Below, in pieces: positions 342 to 52,097 of a DNA stretch of 64,000 bases. The position numbers and the translations under genes are program-made. Origin of the DNA: Squalus acanthias (Eukaryota); assembly GCA_030390025.1 (NCBI GenBank), contig CM059432.1:3968001-4032000 (forward strand). Direction: 5' to 3'. The notes below the pieces were generated by a model. That model had not been told where the DNA came from, made no database searches, and saw nothing but the letters and a program-made list of their open reading frames with translations. Positions within the stretch are counted from its first letter, which is position 1, and every line of letters starts with the position of its first letter.

Positions 342-622
342 TTGGATAATGCCCTTGCCCATCTAACCAATCCGGGCACAGCTTTAGACCAAAGACAGCT
401 TTGTGCTGCATATTTACTGTTGCGGTATGGTGATCTCATGGACTTCCTGAGATTCTCTTTTCATTTTCCCAGGCATGCTATCTAACTTACCTAAAACTCA
501 GAGCGAGGGAAGATTGCCCTTAAGGCCTTAGGGAGCTGGGGCTCACCTATGGGAGTGGTGGCAGAGTGGTTATGTTACTGGACTAGTAATCCTGAGGCCT
601 GGACTAATGATCTGAAGATTTT

Positions 623-3600
623 GGGCTGAATTCTAATTGCCAAGGCGGGTTGGAGTTGGGTTGTGTGGTGGGCGGGTTCCGGAGCCGCTTCCGGCGGGAT
701 CAGCTGCTGATGTCCGATTTTGATTCAATGAGCTTGTTAGTTTCAATGGGGCGCGCTGGCCGGTCCAATGAGTGCGATCGTATCGGCTGGCCGCCTCTGA
801 TGATGTCATCATAGCTGCTGCTTTTAAAGCTGCCATCCAGCCTGAGCCTTTCTCTTGTGGATTCCTGGACTCATTGATATTGATTTATACGCAATGACTT
901 CTTCCAGAGGCAAGTCAGCTCCTCGTTTTAATGATGAGTCCCTCCAAGTTCTTGTGGATGCTGTCAGAGGGCGCAGGGAGATTCTCCTCCCTCCTGATGG
1001 CCGGAGGAAGCCTCCTCAGCAGATCAAGGCAGCCTGGCTGCGCATTGCTCAGGAGGTGAGCGCAAGGTGCATTTATGCACGCTCATGGATCCAGTGCCGC
1101 AAAAGATTTAATGATCTTGTGCGAACATCAAAAGTGAGTATCCCATCACACTTGCCTTCACTCTGCTTCCCTTCTCTTCTCATCACCAGCACTCTACATT
1201 GTAAGCCTCTCCTTCCCATCCCACCTTACCCTTACTTCCCTTGCACCCTTTCCTATCCATCTCTGTGTCTGCACTGAATCACTTCAGCATCCTGCCTATA
1301 CACCCCTTAGACTCGCTCTCACTGTCATGCAGTGACAACAACCAACAACGCACAGGGAGCTACCTTCCTCTTGGCACCTTACCCCATCTTCATCTCACTC
1401 AAAGCTTCTATGGAAGGGATTAATCACACTCACTCCATCACTGTGGCTGAAACACCGCTTGTGTCCCTCCTTGCAGGAAATGATAGCCCACAATAAGAGG
1501 GAGAGAGCACTGACTGGAGGAGGAACAGTTTCCCTCGCAACATTGACCACTGCTGAGGAGGCTGCATACGAGATTGTTGGAGGTGGCGAGGACCTGGAAG
1601 TGGGCGATGGAGAGGCGGGCACACTAGAGGAAGCTGGTGACATAATAGAGTTTCATCCCTCTCAGAATGCAATGGCATATGATGTCCATAGAGAATCGCA
1701 TTGCATCATCTGCTCAAAAGGATGTGTCTGCTACATCAATATCAGATGTCTAAATCATGCCTTTACTCTCCCACAAGACCATCGAGCGCCCCCCTCCCCA
1801 CGATCCAGGACGAAGAGCTGGACATCTCCTCAGAGGAACCTGAAGCCTCCGAGGGACCAGCTTCACCAGGACTCAGTGCACCCAGCACCAGCGCAGCGAC
1901 GCACACCTCGGTGGGGCCCTCGCGTGTTGCCACCTGGTCTATCACAGTGCACAAGTGAGCATCAGCAGATGGTGGAGACAGCGACAGCAGTGGAGAGTCC
2001 TCCTTGTAGGTCGCAGGACTCTCCTAGCTCTGCTGAGCTGCATGCAAATGCTGTGCCTCTGGGGCCATCCAGAAAAAGAGCCTCTCGGGAAATACAGGAA
2101 CAAGTGCAGGTGTCTCTGGAAGGGTTTGCCTCCAGGGTTAGTGCGAGTGTGGAGAGAATGGAGGAGTCCATCTCTAACATCAGCACTGCCGTGGTGGAGG
2201 TAATGGCGCATGAACGCACCACCATGGATAGGATGGCAATCTCCGTGGAAAGGCTGGCTACCTCAGTGGAAAGGACGGCTACGGCCATGGAGGAAATAAG
2301 TCGCCAGAGTCAGGAAAACATGGTGACTGTTCAAAATAGAATGTCATCTCTGGAGGTGCAATGGGCAGCTATTGAGCAGAGAGACCAGGGCTTCATGGAT
2401 GTCCTTTTGAGGAGGACTGCCAGTGCAGATACGGGTCCTCATGGTCCCCCTGATGTGCAGCAAGGTGCTCTCCAGCCACTTGCCAGCACTGAGGTGCAGC
2501 TGACCCTTGAGAGGGATGTTGTTGGCAAGACTGAAGGAAGTGTGGGCTCCTCTCAAAGCGCTCACACGACCATGCCACTGCGGAGCCCTCGGTCAGAGAC
2601 CCACTTTGCAGAGACAACTGAGGTGGCCGTTTCAGCCCCTGCACAGCCGCAGGAAGAGCAGACTGTGGAGGAGCCCTCCTAGGCTCCCAAACCCAGAGGA
2701 CGCCCGCCAAAGGCATCTAAGTAAGAGCAGCATCCTAGTCAGCAAGGTGCCTCTACATCTGCTAAAGCCACAGGGGAAGCACCACGTAGAAGCACGCGTA
2801 AGAGAAAGATTAAGCACCTATAGTCACAAGGGGAGTCACTTGGGTGATTTATCTTTTTTTCATTACTGTTATTGGTTTATTATCCTTTTGTGATGTGTAA
2901 AAGAAAAATTATGGCAAACAGTTGATTGTGTGGCCTATGTGTTATGGAAATGGCAAAAGCGCATTGAGGGCTCAGGGCGACTTGCTTTTGTAATGCTGAT
3001 GGTAAAAGTGATAGGAAATAACAGGGTATAGCAGAGATGATGTATGACATTGGACAAATGTCGCCTGCAATTACAGAGCCATATGGTAGCCACCTATGGT
3101 TGAAGAGTAAGCTTATGGTAGTGTGGCATGGCAGTGTGCATACCCTGGTTGACGGGCAGCAGTGAACTGGAGGGATGCTGCATTGGTCACAACAGGGCAT
3201 GCAAGGCTCCCCTCGTCCTCCTCGTACTCCTCTTCCCAGTAAGATCTGCACTGAGCCACGCGGCTGCTCCTCCTCCGATTATGAGGACCAGGATGAGAGG
3301 GCATAAATGTTTCCCATCCCCTTGCTATAGATTTCATTTGAGGCAACAATCTTGCAAGCGCACAGTCGAAGTGGCCTGAAATAATTCCATTCATGACACA
3401 CTGCAGATGGATGTCAGCTTTAACAGTCACAAGGTCAGTAGATGTGCAAAATCTTATCCCATACCTACAACAGCAAAGTTGTTGCACTTGAATGTTAATC
3501 ATGTTTCAGGGGCGCTTTTAAAGTGCTCCACCAATGCATACAAATCATGTCCTCCAGCAACTCGTCTCCTTGAACCTGGCCTTTTTCTGACTAGTTGGGA

Positions 3601-3839
3601 AACAGGAGCCAGAGGCATGAAAATGGGAAACCACGATGAAAATAGGATTAGCAAGGCAGTTAACAGGCTCTTAACTGCCTTAACTACCTGTCCCACTGGT
3701 TGGAGCAGCTAAACAGACACTCAGAAAATTCGGGTAGGGGCTGGATGGAGGCGGGTTGGGTGTCTGAAACCAGTTTTTCCGATTTTCGCTGCCAACCCGC
3801 CTCCAAACCCGCCTCCTCAGGGCTATTAAAATCGAGCCC
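623..3839 (+). mobile_element. PIF/Harbinger-type DNA transposon, non-autonomous (Myb gene only)
   Basis: Termini gggctgaattctaat / attaaaatcgagccc; interrupts a SINE between its A and B boxes; flanks TTT/TTG; encodes a Myb/SANT protein; no DDE transposase recognisable. Confidence 0.8.
894..2823 (+). pseudogene. Harbinger Myb/SANT-like DNA-binding protein, spliced and degraded
   Basis: Exon 894-1133 (APRF..LVDAV..W..IA..V..RSWIQCRKRFNDL), GTGAGT...TTGCAG intron 1134-1476, exon from 1477 (EMIAHNKRERALTGGG); later acidic region, coiled coil, AT-hook PRGRP (2692-2706) and basic tail after in-frame stops at 2680 and 2722. Confidence 0.8.
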
Positions 3840-4228
3840 TTGAGTTCAAATCCTACCACAGCACCTGGGAAATTTAGGTTTAATTAAATAAATCTGGAAT
3901 GAAAAGCTAGTATCAGTAATGGTGACCATGAAACCACTGGATTTCATAAAAACCCACCTGGTTCACTCATGTCCTTTAGTGAAGGAAATCTGCCATCCTT
4001 ACCTGGTCTGGCCTATATGTGACTCCAGACCCACAACAATGTGGTTGACTCTTAACTGCCCCTCTGAAATGGCCGAGCAAGACACTCAGGTGTACTCAAG
4101 AGGCGGCTGACCACCACCTTCTCGAGGACAATTAGGGATGGGCAATAAATGCTGGCCTTGTCAGCAACACCCACATCCCATGAATGAATAAAAGAAAGTG
4201 AGAGGAGTTTGAAGCATGTAAACTAAAA

Positions 4229-4915
4229 GGGCTGGATTTTCATTGACCCGTGGAGACGGGTTTGGAGGCGTGTGGGGGGTTAAAATTGTGAAAACTGGTG
4301 GGCGGGCACAAGTCCGCCTCCATGCAATTTTCATTAAATTGTGTCTGCTGGTCCTGACTCTGTCCCGCCTCTAAGAGGCGGGATAGGCTGTTAAGGCCCT
4401 TAACAAGCACTAAATTGCCTCTATAATGCCATTTTGAAAGACCTTTGTGATTTTAACCCTTGTTCTACGTGAAGCACGCCTGTTCTGAACCACGATTGTG
4501 AAACCTGGTGGGAGCATGGCTGGCTGGCGGGGAGCATGGCTGGCTGGCTATGCATATATGGATGGCTATGTGGATGGATGTATATATGAATGGAGAGGAG
4601 ACATATCTGGGAGTGGTGGTGTAAAAATATCTGGGAGCAGACTTAGGGCTGCTGCTGCTCATTTTGCATCCAGGTCCTCTCACAGCAAAGGCCAGGCAGT
4701 CTTTGCAGACCTTCAATGCAGCAGCAATGATGACATCATCAAAGGCGACTTTCAGACTGAAAACACTAATTGGTTCATGGGTTCCCACATGCTGGAACTC
4801 AATTGCCCAATTAGGTAAAAATTGCATCAATCTCCCACATCCAATTGCAGTCGGGTGGATAACACGAAAAGTGGATGACACGACCCCAACCCGCCCCAGT
4901 ATCAAAATCCAGCCC
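4229..4915 (-). mobile_element. Harbinger-type MITE related to 623-3839
   Basis: 12-bp TIR gggctggatttt / aaaatccagccc, TSD AAA; inverted match to ~790-830; minus strand retains MSSSSPKSAPRY, resembling the Myb start MTSSRGKSAPRF. Confidence 0.8.
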
Positions 4916-5019
4916 AAAGTATCCGAATTAAATAGAGTAAAATAAATCCCAAAATGTTAATAACTCCACTCAGATAGCAATGAGCAGCATTTTGGATGAA
5001 CACATGGGACGTATACTAG

Positions 5020-6060
5020 TAGGAACATGGGAACATGAGTCGGCTATTCAGCCTCTCGAGCCTACTCCACCATTCAATGAGATCATGGCTGTTCTGTATC
5101 TCAACTCCATCAACCGCCTTGGTTCCATAATCCTTAATGCCCTTACCTAACAAAAATCTATCAATCTCAGTTTTGACATTTTCAATTGACCCCCAGCCTG
5201 ACAGCTTTTTGGGGGGAGAGAGTTCCAGATTTCCACTACCCTTTGTGTGAAGAAGTGCTTCCTGACATCACCCCTGAACGGCCTGGCTCTGATTTTAAGG
5301 TTTTGCCCCCTTGTTCTGGACTCCCTCCACCCAGAGCAAATAGTTTCTCTCTCTCTCTCTACCCTATCAAATCCTTCGATCATTTTAAACACCTCACTTA
5401 GATCACCCCTTAATCTTCTAAACTCGGGGGAATACAATTCTTAAGTATCCCGTTGCATAATTTCAGGGCACTCATTCTGTAAATTCAGCACCATCTCTGA
5501 AAATTAGATCACAGCATGTAAAACTAGATGCTAAGCTAAAATAGTGTGCTTAATCACCTTATAATACTTGAATACATACTTGAAGGAGAGAACATTTATA
5601 GGGCTACGGGGAAAGAGCAGGGGGGAGTGGGACCAATGGGAGAGCTCTTTCAAAGAGCCGGCACAGGCACGATGGGCCGAATGGGCTCCTTCTGTGCTGT
5701 AAGAGTCTATGAAAATAGATAGGAAACAAAAAGTGTTCGAACATCTAAAAGAGAATAGGTAAGTCAATATTATGGGTGAAGATTGCCAGAATTAGAGATC
5801 ATAAGAACATAAGAAATAAGAGCAGGAGTAGTCCATTCAGCCCTTCAAGCCTTTCAACAAGATCATGGCTGATCTTCTACCTCATCTTCACCTTCCTTTA
5901 CTATCCCCATATCCCTTGGCTCCATTAGTATCCAAAAATCTATCGATCTCTGCCTTGAATATACTCAACGACTGAGCCTCCACAGCCCTCTGAGGTAGAG
6001 AATTCCAAAGATTCACCACCCTCTGAGTGAAGAAATTTCTCTTCACCTCAGTCCTCAATA
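5020..6060. mobile_element. Cluster of CR1 LINE 3' fragments (5020-5440 minus, 5570-5712 plus, 5798-6060 minus)
   Basis: RRLRGDL..FK, FFTQRVV.WNSLP and the CR1 3' stem-loop/microsatellite tails. Confidence 0.85.
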
Positions 6061-6197
6061 GCGTTCTTATGAAAAGTCCCCATGCAAAGCACTAATGCCG
6101 TTTCTCTTCATAGAGTCATAGAGTCATAGAGTTATACAGCACGGATAGAGGCCCTTCGGCCCATCGTGTCCGCGCCGGCCATCAAGCCCTGTCTAAT

Positions 6198-9117
6198 CTA
6201 ATCCCATATTCCAGCATTTGGTCCGTAGCCTTGTATGCTATGGCATTTCAAGTGCTCATCCAAATGCTTCTTGAATGTTGTGAGGGTTCCTGCCTCCACA
6301 ACCCATTCAGGCAGTGAGTTCCAGACTCCAACCACCCTCTGGGTGAAAAAGTTCTTTCTCAAATCCCTTCTAAACCTCCCGCCCTTTACCTTGAATCTAT
6401 GCCCCCTTGTTATAGACCCCTCTGCTAAGGGAAAAAGCTCCTTAGTATCCTTCCTATCTATGCCCCTCATAATTTTGTGCACCTCAATCATGTCCCCCCT
6501 CAGCCTCCTCTGCTCCAAGGAAAACAAACCCAATCTGCCCAGTCTCGCTTCATAGCTGAAGCACTCCAGCCCGGGTAACATTCTGGTGAATCTCCTCTGC
6601 ACCCTCTCCAAAGCGATCACATCCTTCCTGTAGTGTGGCGACCAGAACTGCACACAGTATTCCAGATGTGGCCTAACCAGTGTTCTATACAGCTCCATCA
6701 TAACCTCCTTGCTCTTATATTCTATGCCTCGGCTAATGAATGCAAGTATCCCATATGCCTTTTTTACCACCTTATCCACCTGTTCCGCCGCCTTCAGGGA
6801 TCTGTGTACTTGCACACCAAGATCCCTCTGACCCTCCGTCTTGCCTAGGGTCTTACCATTCATTGTGTATTCCCTTGCCTTGTTAGTCCCTCCAAAGTGC
6901 ATCACCTCGCACTTTTCCGGATTAAATTCCATTTGCCACTGTTCCGCCCATCTGACCAACCCATCTATATCGTCCTGCAGACTGAGGCTACCCTCCTCGC
7001 TATTTACCACCCTACCAATTTTTGTATCATCCGCGAACTTACTGATCATACCTTTTACATTCATATCCAAGTCGTTAATGTAGACCACAAACAGCAAGGG
7101 ACCCAGCACCGATCCCTGTGGTACCCCACTGGCCACAGGCTTCCAGTCACAAAAACAACCTTCGACCATCACCCTCTGCCTTCTGCCACTGAGCCAGTTT
7201 TGTATCCAATGTGCCAAGGCACCCTGGATTCCATGGGCTCTTACCTCCTTGACCAGTCTCCTGTGCGGGACTTTATCGAAGGCCTTACTGAAATCCATGT
7301 ATACCACATCCACTGTGTTACCCTCATCCACACACCTAGTCACTCCCTCAAAAAATTCAATCAAATTAGTCAGACATGATCTTCCCTTGACAAAGCCATG
7401 TTGGCTAACCCTGATTAATCATTGCCTCTCCAAGTGGAGACTGATTTTGTCCCTCAGAATTTTTTCCAATAATTTTCCTACCACTGATGTTAGGCTCACT
7501 GGCCTGTAGTTCCCCGGTTTTTCCTACTCCCTTTCTTGAATAATGGTACTACATTAGCGGTTCTCCAGTCCTCTGGCGCATCCACTGTGGCCAGAGAGGT
7601 TCTGAATATATGTGTTAGAGCCCCCGCAATCTCCTCCTTTGCCTCACACAGCAGCCTGGGATACATTTCGTCCGGACCTGGGGATTTATCCATTTTTAGA
7701 CCTGCTAAAACCGCCAATACCTCCTCCCTCTCGATGTTAAAATGTTCGAGTATATCACAGTCCCCCTGCCCTAATTTTATGTCTGCATCGTCCTTCTCCA
7801 TAGTGAAAACAGATGCAAAAAATTCATTTAGAACCCCACCTACATCTTCCGGCTCCACACACAGATTGCCACTTTTGTCCCTAATGGGCCCTACTTTTCC
7901 CTAGTTATCCTCTTACCCTTAATATACTTATAAAACATCTTAGGATTTACCTTTATTTTGCTCGCCAGTGTTATTTCATGGCCCCTCCTTGATCTCCTAA
8001 TTTCTTTTTTAAGTATCCCCCTGCACTTTTTGTACTCCTCTAGGGCTTCCTCCGTCTTTAGCATTTTGTATCTGCCAAAATCCCTCCTTTTTTTCCTGAT
8101 CCATTCTCGTATATCCCCTGACATCCAAGGTTCCCTGGGGTTTTTGGAACCACCCTTGACCTTTACGGGAACATGCTGCCATTGTATGATCTCAATCTCC
8201 CTTCTGAAAGAATCCCATTGCTCCAATGCGGATTTTCCTACAAGCAGCTGATCCCAGTCAATTTTGGCCAGATCCTGCCTTATTCTATTAAAATCGGCCT
8301 TCCCCCAATTTAGAACCTTTATTTCCGGCCCATCCCTGTCCTTTTCCATGACCACTTTAAATCTCACCGTATTATGGTAACTGTCACCAAAGTGCTCACC
8401 TACTAGCACTTCTTCCACTTGGCCGGCCACATTCCCTAGAATTAGGTCCAGTACCGCCCCCTCTCTTGTAGGACTTTCTACATGCTGGCTCAAAAAGCTC
8501 TCCTGGATGCACTTTAAGAATTTTGAACCCTCTAAGCCTTTCACACTCTGACTATCCCAGTTAATATTGGGGAAGTTGAAGTCCCCCATTATTATTACCC
8601 TATTATTTGCACATTTCTCTGAGATTTGCCTACATATCTGTTCCTCTATCTCCCCCTGACTATTTGGGGGCCTATAGTACGCTCCCAGCAAAGTGCTTGC
8701 CCCCTTTTTGTTTTTAAGCTCCACCCATATAGCCTCATTGGAGGAACCTGCTAATATATCATCCCTCCTTATGGCAGTAATTGATTCCTTAATTAATATT
8801 GCGACACCCCCTCCTCTTATACCTCCCCCTCTGTCTCGCCTGAAGATTCTGTACCCCGGAATATTGAGCTGCCAGTCTTGCCCCTCCCTCAACCATGTCT
8901 CCGTGATAGCAACAATATCATACTCCCATGTGTTTATCAACACCTTCAGTTCATCCACCTTATTCGCTAGACTCCTTGCATTAAAATAGATGCCTTCCAG
9001 CCTTGCTCTTACATGTTTGCCCTGTCTTCCAAGCTGACTTGTTTTTTTCTCTATATTTGACTGTACATCACCCCCTATTGTACCTCCACTCTGTATCCCA
9101 TCCCCCTGCCAAGTTAG
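6198..9117 (-). pseudogene. CR1 ORF2: APE endonuclease plus reverse transcriptase, two frameshifts
   Basis: [35 protein letters not shown]; frameshifts near 7895 and 7520. Confidence 0.92.
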
Positions 9118-10064
9118 TTTAAACCTCCCCCAACAGCGCTAGCAAACCTCCCCGCAAGGATATTTGTCCCGCTCTGGTTCAGGTGCAAACCGTCCGACTT
9201 GTACAAGTCCCACCTTCCCCAGAAGCAGGCCCAGTGATCCAGGAAACTAAAACCCTCCCTCCTGCACCAACTCTTTAGCCACGCATTCATCTGTTCTATC
9301 CTCCTATTCCTATACTCACTAGCACGTGGCACTGGGAGTAATCCAGAGATTACAACCTTTGAGGTCCTGCTCTTTAATCTGCTGCCTAGCTCCCTAAATT
9401 CTTGATGCAGGACCTCATCCTCCTTCCTACCTATGTCGTTGGTCCCAATGTGAACCACGACCTCTGCCTGCTCCCCCTCCCCCTTAAGAATGCCCTGTAG
9501 CCGCTCAGTGACATCCATGACCCTGGTCCCAGGGAGGCAACAAACCATCCTGGAGTCACGTTTACGGCCACAGAAACGCCTATCTGTTCCCCTTACGATA
9601 GAATCCCCTACCACTATTGCTCTCCCACTCTTTTTCCTCCCTTTCTGAGCAGCAGAAGCAACCCTGGTGCCAGGAAGTTGGCTGCTGCTGCACTCCCCTG
9701 GTGAGTCATCCCCCTCAACAGTATCCAAATCGGTATACCTGTTTGAAAGGGGGATAACCGCAGGGGTCCCCTGTACTTCCTTCCTGCCTCTAAAGCTCCG
9801 CCTGATGGTCACCCATTTCCCTTCTGCCTGTGCAGCCCTACCCTGCGGCATGACCAACTCGCTAAACGTGTTATCCACGACCCTCTCAGCATCGCGTATG
9901 CTCCAAAACTCATCCACCCGCAGCTCGAGCGCCGCAATGCGGTCTACAAGTAGCTGCAGCTGGATGCATTTCTCGCACACATGGTCCCCAGGGACACTGG
10001 CAGCGTCCCTAAATTCCCACATGGAGCAAGAGGAGCATAACACGGGGCTGATCTCACCTGCCAT
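9114..10064 (-). CDS. CR1 ORF1: zinc finger/leucine zipper plus SGNH/GDSL esterase-like domain
   Basis: 316 aa open; CxxC...CxxC, LQLLVDRIAALELRV, GDSIVRG, HIGTND, DGLH. Confidence 0.9.
   Translation of the reverse strand: MAGEISPVLCSSCSMWEFRDAASVPGDHVCEKCIQLQLLVDRIAALELRVDEFWSIRDAERVVDNTFSELVMPQGRAAQAEGKWVTIRRSFRGRKEVQGTPAVIPLSNRYTDLDTVEGDDSPGECSSSQLPGTRVASAAQKGRKKSGRAIVVGDSIVRGTDRRFCGRKRDSRMVCCLPGTRVMDVTERLQGILKGEGEQAEVVVHIGTNDIGRKEDEVLHQEFRELGSRLKSRTSKVVISGLLPVPRASEYRNRRIEQMNAWLKSWCRREGFSFLDHWACFWGRWDLYKSDGLHLNQSGTNILAGRFASAVGGGLN
9117..9123 (-). promoter_or_regulatory. Candidate -1 ribosomal frameshift slippery heptamer U_UUA_AAC
   Basis: GGT TTA AAC TAA at the ORF1 end; the -1 frame (CTA ACT TGG...) is open and in frame with ORF2, with no AUG before the EN domain. 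Confidence 0.65.
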
Positions 10065-10288
10065 GACCTACTCCTTTAATTAAATTAAAAATGTATTCAA
10101 TACCCCAGTTACAGATATACTCTAGGGCGCTTTATTTACCAACTGTCCCCACTACACCACAGAGACCCTAGAAATTTAACACCACAGAATTTAAGCTTAG
10201 AGAGAAATACTCACCAACCAATCACTTACCTGCTTTTTGGTGACGTCACACTTCGATTATTTTTCCCTCCGAGTTCGGAGACTGGTAC

Positions 10289-10560
10289 GCCTTACCTGGT
10301 CTCTGGAGCCTTTTATAGGCCCACTGCCACCGCTGAAACTCCCGCCGACGCTCTGAGGCCTCACCTGGTCTCTGGAGCCTTTTATAGGCCCACTGCCGCC
10401 GCTGAAACTCCCGCCGACGCGTTGAGGCCTTACCTGGTCTCTGGAGCCTTTTATAGGCCCACTGCCGCCGCTGAAACTCTCGCCGATGCTCTGAGGCCTT
10501 ACCTGGTCTCTGGAGCCTTTTATAGGCCCACTGCCGCCGCTGAAACTCCCGCCGACGCTC
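10289..10560 (-). repeat. 69-bp tandem repeat x4 forming the CR1 5' end
   Basis: Units start at 10289, 10358, 10427 and 10496 on plus; each carries TATAAAAG and CAG|GT(A/G)AG on the minus strand. Confidence 0.95.
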
Positions 10561-11216
10561 ATGGGTGTTTCTGAATTAGCTGTGTATTTTCAGCTGGTTT
10601 CTATTTTTAGATTTTCAGCATTCATGCCAAAAAAAACAGCTCGTACATATATGAAATAATTAATTATGAGGAAGCATTGAATCAATGGCTCTGTATTGGT
10701 GTTCAGATAATCCATGAAACCATTGTTTAATGACCTGTCATGTTCTTATAAGTTTTTGAATCCCGTGAGTAACTGGTTTTATTATTCATGGTTTTATAGA
10801 GGCATAGAGATCAATGAAATAGATTTGTATAAAGGCTGGAATATGCAGAGTCATCTGTGACTGCAGGGTCTGATCAAGTATTTGTTGCCCGGTCACCAGG
10901 AATTCTGGCTTCAGGTCTATATCGGATATCATAGTATTCTGGAATTGGGTGACATTAATTAATGGCATGTAATGGGCCAGCATTCGATTAGGCAACAAAA
11001 TCAGGTGACCTATGGGAACTGAACAGTTCACAGAAAAAATCCACTGGGGCTAAATCAGCAAGCTATCAATCCAAGCACTTCAAGTTAATAAGTTAGGTGT
11101 CACTCACAAAACCAAGTCCAATTGGGCCCTTGCCCCGTCCAGCCACCACTACTGCTTATCCACTGGGACAAACTCAAATCTTCTGAAGCCTTACGGCAAT
11201 ATTTCAATGTCAGAGT

Positions 11217-11283
11217 CAGCCCAGACTCCAGACAGCCCAGACTCCAGACAGCCCAGACTCCAGACAGCCCAGACTCCAGACAG
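11217..11283. repeat. 16-bp tandem repeat x4 (cagcccagactccaga)
   Basis: Direct reading; the motif recurs at ~14801-14819. Confidence 0.9.
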
Positions 11284-11376
11284 TACAGAGGCCTGAGCTG
11301 TCTGGAGGCTGTGAGTATGAAAAGAAACTTGCAAAGGATATCAAAATCTACACAATTTTTTTTTTTACAATTGTAT

Positions 11377-14300: not shown

Positions 14301-14771
14301 AGGTTTACCAGACTGATACCCGGACTCCAAGGGTTATGTTACGAGGAGAGATTACACAAACTAGGCTTGTATTCCCCAGAATTTAGAAGGTTAAGGGGTG
14401 ATCTGATTGAAGTTTTCAAGATATTAAGGGGAACTGATAGGGTGGATAGAGAGAAACTATTTCCGCTGGTTGGGGAGTCTCGAACTAAGGGGCATAGTCT
14501 AAAAATTAGAGCCAGGTCTTTCAGGAGTGAAATTAGGAAACACTTCTACGCACAAAGGGTAGTAGAAGTTTGGAACTCTCTTCCGCAAAAGGCAACGGAT
14601 GCTAGATCAATTGTTAATTTTAAATCAGAGATTGATAGATTTTTGTTAACCAAAGCTACTAAGGGATATGGGCCAAAGGCGGGTCTATGGAGTTAGGTCG
14701 CAGATCAGCCATGATCGCATTGAATGGCGGAACAGGCTCGAAGGGCTGAATGGCCTCCTCCTGTTCCTATG
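11377..14771 (+). mobile_element. 5'-truncated CR1 (RT to 3' end) split by a nested CR1; pieces 11377-12337 and 13935-14771
   Basis: KSPGPDG, SQHGF, KAFDKVPH; gatttagatagg|ttaagt..gggca continuity across the insert. Confidence 0.9.
12339..13930 (-). mobile_element. 5'-truncated CR1 nested in opposite orientation
   Basis: NYRPVSLTS, VRPHLEYCVQFWSP, 3' stem-loop. Confidence 0.9.
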
Positions 14772-14912
14772 ACTCCAAAAAGTACAGAATCCATGTGGCA
14801 CAGACTCCAGACAGCCCAGTTCACACATATATCATTTCAGTAATGCTTGTGTAAAGTGGTTTGGTAAACATTTGTGCTGGCGAGGTATTCACATAGTACA
14901 GTATTGATCCAG

Positions 14913-15600
14913 CCAATGAAGTACTTTTGAAGTGCAGTCACTGTTGTAATGTGGGAAACGCAGCACAGCAAGCTCCCACAAACAGCAGTGTGATAATGAC
15001 CAGATAACCTATTTTTCTCTTAATGTCTCTTTAATCTCTCCTGCCTTTTATTCTACCATAGACCTTCCCTTTTGTTCTTTCATCCCCTCCCCCATTTCCC
15101 AGCCCCTAAACTTGCTTTAAAATCTGTTCCATTTCCTGCTTTTTTCCAGTTCTGACAAAAGGTCATCGACCTGAAACGTTAACTCTGTTTTTTTTCTTCA
15201 CAGATGCTGCCTGACCTGCTGAGTGTCTCCAGCATTTTCTGTTTTTATTTCCGATTTCCAGCATCTGCAGTATTTTCTTTTTGTAACCTATTTTTAGTGA
15301 TGTTGATTGAGGGATAAATATTGGCCCCAGGACACCGGGGAGAACTCTCCTGCTCTTCCTCGAAATAGTGGCCGCGGGATCTTTTACGTCCACACTGAGA
15401 GGGCAGACGGGGCCTTGGTTTAACGTCTCATCCGAAAGACGGCACCTCCGACAGTGCAGCACTCCCTCAGTACTGCACTGGGAGCGTCAGCTGAGATTTT
15501 TGTGCTTAGGTCTCTGGAGTGGGACTTGGACCCACACCCTTCTGACTCAGAGGCGAGAGAGAGAGAGAGAGAGTGCTGCCCACTGAGCCATGGTTGACAT
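14913..15600 (-). mobile_element. DeuSINE (SacSINE1-like) interrupted by a Penelope fragment
   Basis: Deu-domain-like ggtgccgtctttcggatgagacgttaaacc...gtggacgtaaaagatccc; tRNA head at the 15600 end. Confidence 0.85.
15017..15283 (+). mobile_element. Penelope-like terminal fragment with decayed hammerhead (15148-15184)
   Basis: 12-bp TSD taacctattttt (15005-15016, 15284-15295); agtt-CUGACAA-A-AGGUC AUC GACCU-GAAACGUU-aact. Confidence 0.8.
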
Positions 15601-16069
15601 CTGGAATGTGAAGCCTGGAGTGTGATACTTGATGCAGGAGTCTTAATATACTGTAGATTAGCATTGTCGCCAGAGGGAGGGCTGGACAGGCAGACAGATA
15701 ATGGGTTTGTCCCTAATCCGTGTTGATGTTCAGTTTTCAGTTCCAGAAATTTTAAAGTGTAACCAGATTAACTTCATTTTCAGAAACCCGGCAGCTCTAA
15801 CCTGATTACAAGTGAGGATTATTAGAAAGATCTCTTACTGTTAGAGAGATGAGTAAAGTGGCTTTGCTGAAACTGAATCACCAATAAAACCTAGAACAAG
15901 ACCTTCAAATTAAATTTCCTCAATAAATATTACTCATTAAATAATAGGAGTCTGTGAAAATATGTAACTGAAGTTAATTATGTTTCAAAGTTATAATGAG
16001 TTGTATTTCTTTAGATTTGGCCGCCAACCATGGATAATAACGGTGACAATCCCTCCTCAAGCAATCTGT

Positions 16070-17800
16070 CCTAATATCTCCTTCTGTGGCTCAGTTGTTT
16101 GTTTGATAATCGCTCCTGTGAAGCACCTTGGGATGTTTTAATACATTAAAGGTGCTATATAAATGTAAGGGGGGGAAAAATTGAGTCGCGCCCCCTTTGG
16201 AGCGCTAACTTCGCCGGAGCGCTACTTTTAGGGCGCAAAGCAACCGAATTTTTCCCCCAAGGTGTTGTTGTTATAGGACAATTGATCAAAAGCTTGGTCA
16301 AAGAGGTAGGTTTTAAGGAGCGACTTCAAGGAGGTGAAAGAGAGATGAAGATGTTTAGGGAGGGAATTTCAGAGCTGCTGAAGGCACGGCCGCCAATGGA
16401 GTGGTGATGGAAATCGGGGATGTGCAAAAGCTCAGAGCTAGAGGAGCAGAGATCTCAGAGGGTTATAGTGTTGGAGGAGGGGGCGAGGCCATGGAGAGAT
16501 TTGAAAACAAGGATGAGAATTTTAAGTTTAAGGCGTTGCCGGACCAGGAGTGAATGTAGGTCAGCGAGCACAGGGGTAACGGGTGAACGGGTTTCATTAG
16601 GGTCTAGTTTGGATACGGGCAGCAGAGTTTTGGACGAGCTCAAGTTTATGGAGGGTGCAAGATGGGAGGCCGGCCATGACAGCATTGGAATAGTCGAGTC
16701 TAGAACTAACAAGGCATTGGTGAGGGTTTCAGCAGCAGATGGGTTGAGGCGGGGTAGAGACGGGCGATGTTACAGAGGTGGAAGTAGGCGGTTTTGGTGA
16801 TGGAGTGGAGCCCCGTTCTCCCATCACCCCATGGATGGATCTCAGTGAGTGATCTGACACAGCACAGTATTTAAACACAGAACTTAACACCCTAGTGATA
16901 TACACCCTAGATTTTTGTGCTCCGGTCTAACTGGAGTGGGACTTGAACCCGCAACCTTCTGACTCTAGGGGCGAGAGTGCTACCCAACTGAGCCACAATG
17001 CTAATCTACAGTATATTAAGACGCCTGCATCAAATATCACACTCCAGGCTTCACATTTTACATTTTAAACCCCGCTATTTCTTAAACTTCGTTCCAGAAT
17101 ATTTCCACCTCTATTTTTATCAATCTCCTGTGGCATTGCTCTCGGTGAGTCAGAGTTTATTTTGTTCTGAGGTGTTCTGTCAACATTGAACTCATCCAAA
17201 ACTCTGCTGCCCGTGTCCTAACTCGCACCAAGTCCCGTTCACCCATCACCCCTGTGCTCGCTGACCTACATTGGCTCCCGGTCCAGCAACGCCTCAGATT
17301 TAATATTCGCATCCATGTGTTCAGATCCCTCCATGGCCTCGCTCCCCCCTACCTCTGTGTCCTTCTCCAGCCCTACAACCCTCTGAAAACTCTGATAACG
17401 CTCCTGTGAAGCGCCTATGGATGTTTTACTATGTTAAAAATATCAAAGGCAACTTCCCTAACTACTGATAATTCAACATCATCTTGCCATTAACATAGTA
17501 AAACATCCCAAGGTGTTTCACAGGAGCGATTATCAGACAAAATTTGACACCGAGCCACATAAGGAGATATTAGGACAGGTGACCAAAAGCTTGGTCAAAG
17601 AGGGAGGTTTTAAGGAGCATCTTAAAGGAGGAAAGAGAGGCGGAGAGGTTTAGGGAGGGAATTCCAGAGCTTAGGGCCCAGGCAGCTGAAGGCACGGCCG
17701 CCAATGGTGGGATGATAGATATCGGGGATGTGCAAGAGGCCAGAATTGGAGGAGCGCAGAGATCTCGGAGGGTTGTAGGGCTGGAGGAAGTTGGAGATGT
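16070..17800. mobile_element. Cluster of L2 LINE 3' fragments on both strands plus a DeuSINE head fragment (16905-16997 minus)
   Basis: L2-type TPVLADLH.L...R..FKIL and the tail aaaggcgctatataaatg(caag)(ttg)n. Confidence 0.8.
16170..16258. mobile_element. ~89-bp Harbinger-type mini-MITE
   Basis: TIR gggggaaaaatt / aatttttccccc, TSD AAG; both ends resemble 55131-56022. Confidence 0.75.
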
Positions 17801-17899
17801 TTTAGGGAGCGAAAGACAAGTAAAGTTAATGGAGAGCGGCTGGAGATTAGAAGTGAGATAAAGTTTGCTCAGCAGACAACAAGCCTTTTTCTTATATAG

Positions 17900-18475
17900 G
17901 AACATAGGAACAGGAGTAGAAGGGTTAAATTATGAAGACAGTTTGCATTGACTGGGCTTGTATTCCCCTGAATCTAGATTAAGGGGTGATCTAAAGTGTT
18001 TAAGATGATCATAGGATTTGATAGGGTAGAGAGAGAGAAACTATTTCCTCTGGTTGGGGGTGGGGGGTGGGGGGTGGGGGGGCGGCGGGGGGGAATCTAG
18101 AACAAGGGGGCATAACCTTAAAATTAGAGCCAGGCCGTTCAGGGGTGATGTCAGGAAGCACTTCTTCACACAAAGTGCAGTGGAAATCTGGAACTCTCTC
18201 CCCCCAAAAGCTGTTGAGGCTGGGGGTCAATTGAAAACTTAAAAACAGAGATTGAGAGATTTTTGTTAGGCAAGGACATTAAGGGTTACGGAACCCAGGC
18301 GGTTGATGGAGTCCAGATAGAGAGATTTCTGGACACAAAAGGCATCAAGGGGTATGGGGAGAGAGCGGGAATATGGTATTGAGATAGAGGATCAGCCATG
18401 ATCATATTGAATGGCGGAGCAGGCTCGAAGGTCCGAATGGCCGACTCCTGCTCCTATTTTCTATGTTTCTATGTC
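17900..18475 (+). mobile_element. CR1 3' fragments
   Basis: SRTRGHNLKI..FFTQ..WNSLP; (TATGTTTC) tail. Confidence 0.85.
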
Positions 18476-18786
18476 TAGTAGCATGAAGCAGCTTGTGGAA
18501 GAGCAGCTATAATATGTGCGCAGTACTTAAGTCTTGCGCAGATCTGAGCTTTACAGAGAACTAAGACTTGTTGAGGGGAAAAGAAGTGTTAACACAAGAA
18601 AGGAAGTCACCCTTCTTCAAAGGAGCTTGAGCAATAGGATCGATGTAGAAATTTCATTTGAAGTCAGAGGAGATAGTGGTGCTGAGAATGTAAAAGCCAT
18701 CAAAGGTAAGAGGTGGACATGAAGGACCTGTAGGGTTGAAAGTCCTTGGACGGGGCAATCTGGGTAGGTGCTGTCATGTATAAAAA

Positions 18787-19155
18787 CTACAACTTGCATT
18801 TATATGGGGCCTTTACCGTAGTAAAACATCCCAAGGCGCTTCACAGGAGCGATTATCAGGCATAATTTGACACCGAGCCACATAAGGAGATATTAGGACA
18901 GGTGACCAAAAGCTTGGTCAGAGAGGTAGGTTTTAAGGAGCATCTTAAAGGAGGATAGAGAGGTGGAGAGGAGGAGAGATTTAGGGAGGGAATTCCAGAG
19001 CTTAGGGCCCAGGCAGCTGAAGGCAATGGAGGTATTTAAACAAGAGTATGAGAATTTTAAATTTGAAGCATTGATGGACTGGGAGTGAATGTAGTTCAGT
19101 GATGGGTGAATGGGACTTGGTGCGAGTTAGGATACGGGCAGCCGAGTTTTAGATC
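18787..19155 (-). mobile_element. L2 3' fragment
   Basis: Matches the other L2 tails in the window. Confidence 0.8.
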
Positions 19156-19157
19156 TA

Positions 19158-20960
19158 GAGTCTAGAACTAGGGGGCATAGTCTCAGGATAAGGGGTCGGC
19201 TATTTAGGACTGAGATGTGGAGAAATTTCTTCACTCAGAGAGTTGTGAACCTTTGGAATTCTCTAGGCCAAAGGGCTGCGGATGTTGAATCGTTGAGTGT
19301 ATTCAAGGCTGAGATCGATAGACGTTTGGACTCTGGGGGAATCAAGGGATATGGGGATCAGTGGGAAAGTGGAGTTCACAGAATCATAGAAATATACAGC
19401 ACAGAAGGAGGTCATCCGGCCCATCGTGCCCGCGCCGGCCGACAAAGAGCTCTCCAGCCTAATCCCACTTTCCAGCTCTTGGTCCGTAGCCCTGCAGGTT
19501 ACGGCACTTCAAGTGCATATCCAAGTACTTTTTAAATGTGATGAGTGTTTCTGCCTCTCCCACCCTTTCAGGCAGTGAGTTCCAGACCCCCACCACCTTC
19601 TAGCTGAAAAAAGTTCTCCTCAACTCCCCTCTCAACCTCCGACCAATTACTTTAAATCTCTGCCCCCTGGTTATTGACCTCTCTGCTAAGGGAAATAGGT
19701 CCTTCCTATCCACTCTATCTAGGCCCCTTATAATTTTACACACCTCAATTAGGTCTCCCCTCAGCCTCCTCTGTTCCAAAGAAAACAAACCCAGCCTATC
19801 CAATCTTTCCTCATAGCTAAAATTCCCCAGCCCAGACAACATCCTTGTAAATCTCCTCTACACCGCCTCTCGTGCAATCACATCCTTCTTGTAATGTGGT
19901 GACCAGAACTGCACGCAGTATTCTAGCTGCATCCTAGCTAGTGTTTTATACAGTTCAAGCATAACCTCCCTGCTCTTATATTCTATGCCTCGGCTAATAA
20001 AGGCAAGTATCCCGTATGCCTTCTTAACCACCTTATCTACCTGTCCTGCTACCTTCACGGATCTGTGGACATGCACTCCAAGGTCCCTCTGATCTTCTGC
20101 ACTTCTCAGTGTCCTACCATTTAATGTATATTCCCTTGCCTTGTTAGTCCTCCCCAAATGCATTACCTCACACTTTTCCAGATTGAATTCCATTTGCCAC
20201 TGTTCTGCCCACCTGACCAGTCCATTGATATCTTCCTGCAGTCTACAGCCTTCTTCTTCATTATTAACCGCACGGCCAATTTTTGTATCATCTGCAAACT
20301 TCTTAATCATACTTCCTACATTCAAGTCCAAATCATTGATATATACCACAAAAAGCATGGGACCCAGTACTGAGCCCTGTGGAACCCCACTGGAAACAGC
20401 CTTCCAGTCACAAAAACACCTTTCGACCATTACCCTTTGTTTCCTGCCTCTGAGCCAATTTTAGATCCAACTTGCCACTTTTCCTTGGATCCCATGGGCT
20501 TTTACTTTTGTGACCAGTCTGCCATGTGGGACCTTATCAAAAGCCTCCTTGTTGCCTTCTCAAAAAATTCAATCAAGTTAGTCAGACACAACCTTCCCTT
20601 GACAAATCCATGCTGACTGTCCCTGATTAATCCGTGTCTTTCTAAATGAAGATTTACCCCGTCCCTCAGAATATTTTCCAATAATTTTCCCACAACCGAG
20701 GTTAGGCTGACTGACCTGTAATTATTCGGTCTATCCCTTTCTCCCTTTTTAAACAACGGTACCATGTTAGCAGTCCTCCAGTCCTCCGGCACCACACCTG
20801 TAGCCGGAGAGGATTGGAAAATGATGGTCAGGGCCTCTGCTATTTCCTCTCTTACTTCTCTTAACGGTCTGGGATACATTTCATCAGGGCCTGGGGATTT
20901 ATCCTCTTTCAAAGATGCTAAACCCCTTAATACTTCCTCTTTCACTATGTTTATTTCATC
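19158..20960 (-). mobile_element. CR1 fragments (19158-19378 plus; 19379-20960 minus, RT to 3' end)
   Basis: [29 protein letters not shown]. Confidence 0.9.
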
Positions 20961-21384
20961 GTTGATGGTAGAAGATCAGGCACGATCTTATTGAATGGCG
21001 GAGCAGGCTTGAGGGGCCGTATGGCCGACTCCTGCTCCTAATTCATATGTTCTTTGCTATCTGTTGATGATGGTAGTTAAAAGGGAATTCTAGGAGTTTA
21101 TTGGTTGCAATAGGAAGTGACGAGCAATTCATCTATAACCCTGCCCAGAGACTGGCTCAGTTTGCAGAATTGCATGAAATGGAACATTTTACTCAAATTC
21201 TTTGGTCCTGTTGCATTTATCTATTTGTGTTAGATTGCTCACTATTCTACCTACACTGTGTAGAATCGTGGGCATTACTTTTCTTGGCTAATTTCAGCAG
21301 CGGATGGGCTGAGGCAGGGGCGGAGACGGGCAATGTTTCGGTGGTGGAAGTAGGCGGTCTTGGTGATGGAGAGGATTTTTAATT

Positions 21385-22212
21385 TTTTTAAATTAATTCC
21401 TGGGATGTGGGCATCGCTGGCAAGGCCAGCATTTATTGCCCATCCCTAATTGCCCTTGAGAAGGTGGTGGTGAGCCGCCTTTTTGAACCACTGCAGTCCC
21501 TGTGGTGAAGGTACTCCCACAGTGCTGTTAGGGAGGGAGTTCCAGGATTTTGACCCAGCGACGATGAAGGAACGGCTGATATACTTCCAAGTCAGGATGG
21601 TGTGTGACTTGGAGGGGAACTTGGAGGTGGTGGTGTTCCCATGCGCCTGCTGCCCTTGTCCTTCTAGGTGGAAGAGGTCGTGGGTTTGGGAGGTGCTGCC
21701 GAAGAAGCCTTGGCGAGTTGCTGCAGTGCATCTTGTAGATGGTACACACTGCAGCCATGGTACGCCGGTGGTGGAGGGAGTGAATGTTTAAGGTGGTGGA
21801 TGGGGTGCCAATCAAGTGGGCTGCTTTGTCCTGGATGATGTCGAGCTTCTTGAGTGTTGTTGGAGCTGCACTCATCCAGGCAAGTGGAGAGTATTCCATC
21901 ACACTCCTTACTTGTGCCTTGTAGATGGTGGAAAGGCTTTGGGGAGTCAGGAGGTGAGACACTCGCCGCAGAATACCCAGCCTCTGACCTGCTCTTGTTG
22001 CCACAGTATTTATGTGGCTGGTCCAGTTAAGTTTCTGGTCAATGGTGACCCCCCAGGATGTTGATGGTGGGGGATTCGGCGATGGTAATGCCGTTGAATG
22101 TCAAGGGGAGGTGGTTAGACTCTCGCTTGTTGGAGATAGTCATTGCCTGGCGCTTGTGTGGTGCATATGTTACCTGACACTTATCAGCCCAAGCCTGAAC
22201 GTCGTCCAGGTC
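21385..22212 (-). mobile_element. 3' fragment of the tRNA-headed LINE family
   Basis: ATRAGQRLGILRRVSHLL..IYKAQVRSVMEY; same tail as 51471-51718. Confidence 0.9.
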
Positions 22213-22494
22213 TTTTTGCTCAACTTGGGGTCAACTAGGATGGCGAGGTTACGGACAGTCTGGCTCGGCCAGGGAGGGCGGATGGAATCGGTGGCGAGGG
22301 AACTAGGGAATCACGGCTACCTTCTGCCTTACTTCAAAATCCTCCCGAGAAAACCTTCTTTTCAATCGCACCTGCATTTCTTGGCTAATAGTTTTTTAAC
22401 GGCGGTTTTCAAGGACATGCCCCATGTATACAAATTGCATTGTGCACAATTTTGATTATAATTGATTTTGCCAGCGTTCATGTTGTGAATGCTG

Positions 22495-23606
22495 AAACAT
22501 AGAAACATAGGAGATAGGAGCAGGAGTAGGCCATTCGGCCCCTCGAGCCTGCTCCGCCATTCAATGCGATCATGGCTGATCATCCAAATTCAGTACCCTG
22601 TTCCTGCTTTCTCCCCATATCCCTTGATCCCCTTAGCTTTAAGAAATATATCTAACTCCTTCTTGAATATATTTAATGAATTGGCCTCAACTGCCTTCTG
22701 TGGTAGAGAATTCCACAAGTTCACCATTCTCTGGGTGAAGAAATTCCTCCTCAACTCAGTCCTAAATGGCTTACCCCTTATCCTTAGACTGTGACCCCTG
22801 GTTCTGGACTCCCCCACCATCGGGAACAGCCTTCCTGCATCTAGTCTGTCTAGTCCTGTTAGAATTTTATAAGTTTCAATGAGATCCCCTCTCATTCTTC
22901 TAAACTCTAGCGAATATAATCCTAATCGACCCAATCTCTCTTCATACATCATTCCTGCCATCCCAGTTATCAGTCTGGTGACTCTTCGCTGCACTCCCTC
23001 CATGGCAAGAATATCCTTCCTCAGATAAAGCGACCAAAACTGCACACAATACTCAAGGTGTGGTCTCACCAAGGCCCTGTACAACTGCAGCAAGACATCC
23101 TTGTTTCTGTACTCGAATCCTCTCGCTATGAAGGCCAACATACCATTTGCCTTCTTAACCGCCTGCTGCACCTGCATGCTTACCTTCAGCGACTGGTGCA
23201 CAAGAACACCCAAGTCTCGTTGCACTTCCCCTTTTCCCAATCTATTGCCGTTCAGATAATAATCTGCCTTCCTGTTTTTGCCATCAAAGTGGATAACCTC
23301 GCATTTATCCACATTATACTGCATCTGCCATGCATCTGCCCAATCACCCAACCTGTCCAAATCATACTGGAGTTTCTCTGCATCCTCCTCACAGCACACA
23401 CGCCCACCCAGCTTTGTGTCATCTGCAAACTTGGAGATATTACATCTAGTTCCCTCGTCTAGATCATTAATATATATTGTGAATAACTGGGGTCCTAGCA
23501 CCGATCCCTGCGGTACCCCACTAGTCACTGCCTGCCACTCGGAAGAAGACCCGTTTATTCCAACTCTTTGCTTCCTGTCTGCCAACCAGTTTTCTATCCA
23601 AGTCAG
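22495..23606 (-). mobile_element. 5'-truncated CR1 with open RT C-terminal ORF (22590-23585)
   Basis: 331 aa open, FADD, (TATGTTTC) tail. Confidence 0.92.
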
Positions 23607-24339
23607 TTAAGTTTATGTTGAAGCTTCTTTGAAATTACCCTCGTAAAACAGACCAGCTTTCAACGTAGGTTCCAGAGCAGTGTGCTTTTCAGTAAGACTT
23701 TAACCTTTCTCAGAAACTAATGCATAAGTAGCAATTGTTGTGATAATTATTAAAATATAATTGAACTGACCGCATAATTTCCTTATATATTCATTAAATT
23801 AGCCTAACACCCAATTATAAATGTACGTTGGCAATGTACTATTTTGAAACACATCAATGCTATTAGAAATCCATTAGTGATTTGACACAATGCTGCTTTT
23901 TCATTTAACTGTGTATTACAATTTCATTAAGATCATCCTCACCACTGGTTATTATACGGCAAGTCATCACAAACTGATTATTGTGGATACAGTACAGTAA
24001 CTCCATAACTTAAGTGAGACGGAGTCCTTACACAATTTGCAGTGGGTATAGAAATTCAAAAAGGTTTAATCATCATTTGGGTTCCACTAGGCTGAAGCCC
24101 AAAGCACTCACTTGGCATTACACTGTAAGCAATTTAAATTGATATTTTTCCAATGGTATGAGGCAACAGCAAGTATTCAATGAGACAAACTCAGACAAGG
24201 GCGGATTTTAATCGCATAAATTGAATAAAAACTTCAGACCTCTCTGAAAGCCTTTTGGTTCCTCTTCACAAACACTGGAGACATTTTCGTACCAAAGTTA
24301 CACCTCCATGAGTCTAGGTCCACCAGTTTAAAAAAATAA

Positions 24340-24898
24340 TTAATTCATGGAATGTGGGCGTTGCTGGCGAGGCCAGCATTTATTGCCCATCCCTAATTGT
24401 CCTTGAGCGCCGCCTTCTTGAACCGCAGCGGTCTGTGTGGTGAAGGTGCTCCCATAATGTTGTGGGGGGACTTTGCAGGGTCGACTGTGATGGGTACGCC
24501 TTTGTCATGTTCGGTGCCAAGATCGCTGGTGTGTGGTCCGTCAGGTCTTATTCTTAGTATACGTCTTTGTAGCGGTTTGGTACAACTGAGTAGCTCGCTG
24601 GGCCATTTCAGAGGGGCAGATAAGAGTCAACCACATTGCTGTGGGTCTGGAGTCACATATCGGCCAGACCGAGTAAGGACGGCAGATTTCCTTCCCTAAA
24701 GGACATTCGTGAACCAGATGGGTTTTTCACGACAATCCAGTAGCTTTATGGTCGCCATTACTGATACTAGCTTTTTATTCCAGATTTATTTAATTAACTG
24801 AATTTAAATTCCCCAGCTGCTGTGGTGGGATTTGAACTCACGTCTCTGGATCGTTAGTCCAGGCTTCTGGATTATTCGTCCAGTAACAAAACCACTAT
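24340..24898 (-). mobile_element. Internal-deletion derivative of the tRNA-headed LINE
   Basis: tRNA head plus 5' UTR to the first EN codons (gaccctgcaaagtcc) joined near 24460 to the 3' tail. Confidence 0.85.
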
Positions 24899-25006
24899 TG
24901 ACTTAATACACTGCTCTCAAATGTTGGAAACCTGGGTTCAAACCAGCCTTGTAAAAGGTATCGTTTTTAGTGAAGGCCATTAACTCCATCTCATCACCAA
25001 CACCAT

Positions 25007-47591: not shown

Positions 47592-47685
47592 GGGAATAGT
47601 AGCATAGTGGTTATGTTACTGGACTAGTAATCCAGAGGCCTGGATGAATGTTCCAGAGATGTGAGTTCAAATCCCACCACGGCAG
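47592..47685 (+). promoter_or_regulatory. tRNA-like head / type 2 Pol III promoter
   Basis: A box TAGCATAGTGG 47600-47610, B box GTTCAAATC 47665-47673; D stem GCAT/ATGT, anticodon stem CTGGA-CTAGTAA-TCCAG, second CTGGA/TCCAG arm, T arm. Confidence 0.85.
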
Positions 47686-51470: not shown

Positions 51471-52097
51471 CACCATCATCTGCAAGTTCCCCTCCAAGTC
51501 ACACACCATCCTGACTTAGAAGTATATTGGCCGTTCCTTCATCGTCGCTGGGTCAAAATCCTGGAACTCCCTCCCTAACAGCACTGTGGGAGCATCTTCA
51601 CCACACGGACTGCAGCGGTTCAAGAAGGCGGCTCACCACCACCTTCTCAAGGGCAATTAGGGAATGGCAATAAATGCTGGCATTGCCAGCGACACCCACA
51701 TCCCAGGAACTAATAAAAAAAAGGTTTTCTCCAAGCTTGAGCTGTCACACGCTTACGCGCAGCTGAATGTTGACGAAGAAAGTCAACAGTATCTCACTGT
51801 CAACGCACACAAGGGACTGTACTCATACACTCAGCTGCTGTATGGTGTAAAGTCCTCCCCCAAAATCTTCCCGGCTACGATGGATAAGATTTTGCATGGA
51901 GTTGCAAATTGCTTATTCAATCGATGTGCTGATTGCAACAAACAGCGAGGAAGAAAATCTAGAATAGTTAGATATAGTGCTTCAAAGGTTGAATGCCCAC
52001 AACGTCAAATTGAAAAGGAGCAAATGTGCTTTTGTGCGACCCGAGGTTGTGTACCTTGGTTTAAAAGTTGATGCAAATGGCTTGCAACCAGTGAAGG

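Follow-up and report, generated by a model that had tools for sequence, protein, structure and literature searches.

Seven consensuses of the long interspersed element (LINE) family Zenon are tabulated for elasmobranchs, from five species (four sharks and one ray) and with lengths of 2,886–3,314 nt (SquAca_Zenon-1 to -3, CarCar, ScyCan, RhiTyp, and HypSab in Table S2 of Stuart et al, 2026, PMC13343379). A lepidopteran Zenon has given rise at least four times to Persaeus, a short internally deleted element (SIDE) with variable breakpoints and microhomology, as described by Wang et al (2019, PMC6740152). Persaeus keeps the 5′ untranslated region (UTR) and the start of the open reading frame (ORF) together with the ORF end and the 3′ UTR, around a variable middle; in the same account it lacks both a polymerase III promoter and homology to tRNA, 5S, or 7SL, and is hence not classed as a short interspersed element (SINE). 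Bipartite non-autonomous LINEs such as Bov-A/Bov-tA, RIME, and Vingi likewise combine a body from the 5′ part of a LINE with a LINE tail; in these systems, the small-RNA head joins later by a template switch, and the parents named are RTE, Ingi, Vingi, and R2 only (Kojima, 2018, PMC5786205). Here, we analyze a stretch of 64,000 nt from Squalus acanthias (the window; assembly GCA_030390025.1, contig CM059432.1, positions 3,968,001 to 4,032,000 of the forward strand), repeat-rich, vertebrate-type DNA that holds a full-length LINE with a tRNA-derived head and two short repeats, which we call elements A and B. The short repeats likely arose by loss of the coding middle of a tRNA-headed shark Zenon LINE.

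Elements A and B consist only of the two ends of one LINE, joined at different junctions (Table 1). A preliminary description of the locus had already proposed this, and its coordinates hold: in a BLAST self-comparison of the window, the elements match the LINE with E-values of 1e-14 to 1e-61, and the aligned parts are 82–89% identical. The parent LINE itself (47592–50353 plus 51470–51723) lies outside the interval 551–24898 covered by that description. Element A totals 430 nt (328 nt of head and 102 nt of tail), contains both the A box and the B box, and has its junction at LINE 47906|51620. Element B is 578 nt long, has its junction at LINE 48016|51583, and seems to reach at its 5′ end to about 24916, beyond the 24898 given earlier. 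As it holds coding sequence of the LINE, element B is therefore derived from the headed LINE; its leader differs from that of the parent by gaps of 9 and 6 nt. A profile search recovered only three heads in the window, those of element A, element B, and the parent LINE. The 3′ stem-loop is kept in all short forms and spared by every junction. The one-parent anatomy of the short repeats is solid.

Table 1. Features of elements A and B and of the parent LINE (LINE positions use the numbering of the window).
Positions	Strand	Feature	Evidence
551..622	+	5′ portion of element A, with the tRNA-derived head (A box, TGGCAGAGTGG, at +9)	58/69 (84%) to LINE 47592-47660; box scan
623..3839	+	Inserted DNA transposon that separates the A box of element A from its B box; terminal inverted repeats imperfect; ORF of Myb/SANT-like type starting at 894	PF13873, E 7e-08
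3840..4095	+	B box of element A and the conserved body of its head, ending at the position equivalent to LINE 47906	206/239 (86%) to LINE 47661-47906
4096..4197	+	Tail of element A, equivalent to the LINE from 51620 onward: final ORF codons, 3′ stem-loop, and A-rich terminus	90/102 (88%) to LINE 51620-51722
24339..24456	-	Tail of element B, equivalent to the LINE from ~51583 onward and lacking 12 nt internally; the junction lies on imperfect homology	102/118 (86%) to LINE from ~51583
24457..24916	-	Remainder of element B: head with a damaged A box and an intact B box, then the leader of the LINE and ~8 endonuclease codons, ending at LINE 48016	24898-24580 to LINE head, 265/297 (89%); 24579-24457 to remaining leader and ~8 endonuclease codons, 88/108 (82%)
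47592..47690	+	Head of the full-length LINE, derived from a tRNA, with its A box at +9 and its B box at +74	Rfam RF00005, 26.3 bits, E 0.0037
47691..47991	+	Body of the head, conserved and common to A, B, and the LINE as far as ~47906; thereafter, LINE-only leader	By-eye match to published Zenon 5′ ends
47992..50353	+	Decayed single ORF with endonuclease and reverse transcriptase, without ORF1; no sense-strand T4 run	PF14529, E 4.8e-09; PF00078, E 2.4e-24
50354..51469		Nested 1,116-bp insertion with 5-bp duplication ACACC; probably solo-LTR-like (LTR, long terminal repeat)	Joint 50348->51470 skips the insertion, 2,688 reads (X23)
51470..51723	+	ORF end, 3′ stem-loop, poly-A tail; AAAAGG duplication flanks the whole element on both sides	Sister-copy fold 38410-38482

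The head is a true part of the LINE family, a point for which the preliminary description had cited the two different breakpoints and which now stands on further grounds. The target duplication AAAAGG lies on both sides of the head-plus-LINE unit, with three extra bases at the 5′ side; the unit sits within the reverse transcriptase (RT) remnant of another element, of which the right flank alone scored in Pfam. Judged by eye over the first 400 letters of each, all seven elasmobranch Zenon consensuses open with the head, and SquAca_Zenon-3 matches the window LINE in this 5′ stretch through the first ORF codons (PMC13343379). The order head, leader, ORF is repeated independently in element B. Read depth runs continuously from the head through the LINE-only leader into the ORF (10,219, 3,001, and 4,064 in X23, a run of raw reads; 691k, 409k, and 562k in X1, a set of contigs), although the depth ratios are biased and 340,125 of the 450,334 X23 reads are less than 90% alike. 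Head and LINE move as one unit across sharks and rays. A SINE and a 5′-truncated LINE lying side by side by chance might be suspected where SINEs and LINEs are as dense as in this window and the tRNA likeness of the first 90 nt scores below the Rfam gathering score (26.3 versus 29 bits). Such an accident is nevertheless extremely improbable, given that one target duplication encloses both parts and that their order recurs in element B, and the seven published consensuses already contradict it. ARAGORN does not call the LINE head as a tRNA; the tRNA-Ala that it reports at 51775–51871 lies within the flanking RT remnant and is unrelated to the head. The RNA fold of the head core is not unusual (z −0.51), and an Rfam search found no ribozyme.

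By its structure and 5′ sequence, the window LINE is best classed as an elasmobranch Zenon: it has a single ORF for endonuclease and RT without ORF1, a poly-A tail, a family length of about 3.3 kb, and a 5′ end that matches by eye over 400 letters (PMC13343379). The copy in the window measures 3,011 nt, compared with about 3,300 nt in the consensuses, and carries several internal deletions. In an RT tree of 37 rows, none of them a named Zenon reference, it stands apart from the CR1 copies of the window, and its sister group consists of unnamed single-ORF proteins, with a support of 93/91 that is under the starred level. The closest named protein to its RT piece, and the only one to which cluster look-ups gave a name, is the shark protein P0004 (73% over 46% of the query), a FERM-domain gene model whose first ~120 residues come from the LINE RT, by exonisation or annotation error. 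The ORF starts 400 nt from the 5′ end of the element, and its start codon is not evident: the only upstream ATG in the endonuclease frame (within 47882–47994) runs into a stop after two codons. The published Zenon rows share ATG-GCC-TAG in the leader and also have a later ATG, whose frame, as read by eye, differs from that of the ORF and overlaps its start. The words “tRNA”, “internal deletion”, and “polymerase III” do not occur in the main text of PMC13343379, which describes neither the head nor the short derivatives, nor the depletion of T-runs. A literature search whose scope left Repbase, Dfam, and subscription journals outside returned no description of a tRNA head on shark Zenon or of these SINEs.

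Reads of four runs were mapped to the LINE, and reads of four runs to element B; X1 and X15 consist of contigs, and runs X21 (144 reads) and X22 (0 reads) were left out of the counts. X23 is probably another species, with most of its reads less than 90% alike, and the runs in general may not be of S. acanthias. For each mapping we considered the best 15 joints, out of 2,487 on the LINE and 1,236 on element B. In X23, the joint 47871->51648 is carried by 854 reads with 195 starts, 737 of them with an identical two letters in between. On element B, the same run joins 24614–24623 to 24399–24407 in 11 listed rows that sum to 2,445 reads, and the joint 24405->24584 has 247 reads; two junction types are possibly mixed in these rows. 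Contig joints are 47871->51565 and 47950->51574, with ~24 letters in between, in X1, and 24454->24564, 24454->24643, and 24446->24626 on element B in X15. An amplified head–tail form is therefore present in another genome, and the breakpoints of such forms are many. From the 1,887 million letters read, and for a genome that we take to span a few gigabases, we estimate that the amplified short forms amount to roughly a thousand copies, if not more. In the 3′ part of the LINE, X23 reads also show a 56-nt tandem duplication (51609->51554, 2,865 reads; 51605->51550, 2,126 reads), a subfamily marker (51550–51609) that is absent from the window LINE.

Elements A and B may themselves be single events, either deletions of full-length copies after insertion or one-off template jumps, neither of which was ever amplified; we consider this quite possible, at somewhat less than even weight. 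Each is present in one copy in the window, where the full-length LINE is also internally deleted in several places, and distinct joints of low support run into the thousands. At the junction of element B, head and tail are imperfectly homologous over ~20 nt (P 0.02 in a comparison with 3,000 random head–tail pairs), and this element has in addition a 12-nt deletion and a damaged A box; it may well be a single event. Element A looks different, as its head ends close to where the heads of the amplified forms end (~47878–47906), both boxes are kept, and its junction shows no homology. The single-event reading can coexist with loss of the coding middle as the general explanation, whose case for amplification rests on other junctions.

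Several further observations weigh against that explanation. The junctions of A and B are absent among the joints listed (best 15 of 2,487 and best 15 of 1,236), which counts only weakly because the best 15 alone were considered and the runs are possibly of other species. No listed contig piece crosses the element B junction, and the leader of element B is too diverged to capture reads (X23 depth below 270). A target duplication was searched for at elements A and B, and none was found. The local homology of the B junction is itself such a point, and five of six junctions tested have no more local homology than random pairs, the four read-derived positions among them being approximate. The MITE-like origin (MITE, miniature inverted-repeat transposable element) proposed in the preliminary description stands in part: head, body, and tail are all present in one LINE, and B includes coding sequence, but membership of A and B in an amplified family finds no support. 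A breakpoint shared by many copies is seen at the X23 junction rather than at theirs, and the junction microhomology considered there is seen at element B and not at the other five.

Two directions of origin can be compared, deletion from the LINE and capture of the head from a SINE. In the latter, the starting point was an ordinary SINE (tRNA head, body, and short Zenon tail), from which the partner LINE took up the head through template switching before the split of sharks and rays; the commonest short form would be the surviving donor, with only B-like forms as later deletions. The head is absent by eye from the 5′ ends of two hagfish Zenon elements and one coelacanth Zenon, the coelacanth row being of low confidence (PMC13343379); the head was therefore gained, and a SINE donor fits this. 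To judge from these sequences, the gain is one event before sharks and rays split. Should an older SINE have given the LINE its head in a single event, the chimera step would be moved back and not removed, which also tells against the deletion model. In the account of Wang et al, Persaeus has no tRNA homology (PMC6740152), and module exchange between such elements is well described (PMC5499810, PMC5786205). Joints with a tail from ~51648 occur in all four runs mapped to element B, and X23 depth is higher over the head core (20–24k) than at the ORF start (~4k, other bait).

We nevertheless consider the SINE-donor scenario unlikely. The short forms match the local LINE in head variant and in divergence: elements A and B share its variant (SquAca type, by eye), the main loose ends in X23 are of the CarCar/ScyCan head type, and pairwise head divergence among A, B, and the LINE is 11.1–14.8%. 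In the comparison of divergence proposed earlier, the short forms thus give no indication of being much older than the full-length form, a weak result from two copies. Many junctions nest inside the LINE, and these nested breakpoints would fit repeated loss from one parent, as in the moth Persaeus. Short-tail joints are strong only in the raw reads of X23, a weak point because contigs under-report branch points. In the window there is no free SINE that combines this head with another tail, and the body is not Meta and has, by eye, no clear Deu domain.

The searches also reached beyond sharks. The exact head motif had no match in metagenome, genome, and viral contigs. Scans for related loci returned 160 distant loci of non-shark relatives, none of them in viral contigs, and no head-like DNA was detected in these, an absence that counts on the side of the SINE donor: head and tail profiles gave nothing under E 0.3, with almost no power for tRNA heads, as L082 is alone in the nearest protein group and has 33 nt before its open frame. 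A peptide spanning the head and the ORF start had two weak matches among 1.84 billion proteins. Many of the loci L081–L160 come from bacterial or archaeal genome bins with animal-type LINE contigs, apparently host contamination.

In the deletion model, the short repeats are the two ends of a tRNA-headed shark Zenon LINE, and loss of the middle in one step would leave a polymerase III promoter joined to a tail that the LINE RT is predicted to recognise. The A and B boxes suggest that the head supplies an internal type-2 promoter, and the tail stem-loop (z −1.5; 10 of 200 shuffles fold equally well) may be the RT recognition site by analogy with the established SINE–LINE model. With the head as promoter and the tail as RT site, a deletion would therefore yield a SINE in one step. 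Such deletions would recur, through template jumps during reverse transcription or through homology-led deletion at the DNA level; most forms would stay single or rare, and a few would become SINE subfamilies mobilised in trans.

Four T residues end polymerase III transcripts. The sense strand of the LINE has no TTTT in 3,008 nt, where its composition predicts 5.0; T3 runs are also depleted (11 versus 23.2 expected), as are C4 runs (7 versus 12.5), and A and G runs are near expectation. No T4 run occurs in 5,958 nt of pooled, overlapping copies of the LINE family, compared with 60 in 15,341 nt of CR1 copies (15 stretches) and 7 in 1,630 nt of a third LINE family. When the LINE protein is re-coded with CR1 codons, 4.8 T4 runs are expected (P 0.002), and none of 94 long ORFs from non-shark relatives is free of T4. 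Counting against this line of evidence, the depletion falls short of significance when set against the LINE's own codon usage (P 0.06) or its dinucleotides (P 0.06), and L082, the closest non-shark locus, is T4-poor as well (1 versus 3.7 expected). The absence of T4 from the sense strand thus suggests, weakly, that polymerase III reads through the element. The parent LINE might then be transcribed from its own head by polymerase III, which would account for the avoidance of T-runs on its coding strand and would make its deletion products transcription-ready. More tentatively still, and with real doubt, elasmobranch Zenon could be an autonomous protein-coding retrotransposon with a polymerase III transcript that spans 3.3 kb from an internal tRNA-type promoter, which selection keeps clear of T-run terminators and which is translated without a cap. 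It would act as a SINE factory, in which each internal deletion that spares the head and the 3′ stem-loop makes a complete SINE at once, independently in several shark lineages.

LINEs are usually held to use polymerase II and SINEs polymerase III (PMC10886601). Should polymerase III indeed read the parent LINE, its RNA would be a natural protein-coding transcript of that enzyme. In the usual view, the small-RNA head of a SINE has to be joined to a tail of foreign origin; in the present case, head and tail both come with one parent, and SINE birth can therefore be a single, repeatable deletion. Births of this kind would be datable and countable in existing shark assemblies. The parent LINE would also be a direct source for a conserved SINE body. 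By eye, the ~130-nt body that precedes the junctions (within 47692–47906) looks better conserved from ray to shark than the tRNA part, and it resembles a SINE “highly conserved domain” located in a LINE leader.

The short forms most resemble SINE2 elements, with a head that comes from their own LINE and not from a later template switch. Tail and size agree with this class (short, non-coding, with a LINE-derived 3′ tail), and a tRNA-derived head with A and B boxes is present in element A and the LINE, element B having no clean A box. Amplification as a unit is shown for the X23 junction and not for those of A and B. They resemble SIDEs in that A and B contain only the 5′ and 3′ parts of one LINE, and differ from them, as SIDEs are defined for Persaeus, in possessing a small-RNA head with promoter boxes. 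The MITE-like route of internal deletion has precedent in Persaeus from Zenon, Bov-A, and RIME; what is new is a polymerase III head that comes from the parent itself. Two described SINEs also combine a shark host, a tRNA head, and a LINE-derived tail, namely SacSINE1 (Deu, with an L2-2_CM-type tail; PMC5499810) and HE1 (V-SINE, HER1; PMC3747384). They are reported to have other partner LINEs and conserved domains, and we set them apart tentatively, by eye against published Deu and CR1-tail alignments. For SacSINE1, there is a vague by-eye likeness to the Deu alignment, and the tail of the short forms is that of this LINE, not of L2. MetaSINE was rejected because a by-eye comparison with the Meta consensus (supplement of PMC7245038) shows no match to the 66-bp Meta domain that follows the tRNA head in that class.

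Other repeats in the window touch these elements or lie close to them. The 3,217-bp insertion inside element A, which we take to be Harbinger-like, keeps its Myb/SANT-like ORF, and only a remnant is left where the transposase would be. With 4226–4915, it forms a pair of Harbinger-like elements whose inverted ends are related; the second element is short and non-autonomous, with an AAA duplication. The insertion at 50354–51469 within the parent LINE is deeply covered in the X1 contigs and almost uncovered in the X23 reads. A 69-bp tandem repeat at 10289–10560 adjoins a CR1-like 5′ region.

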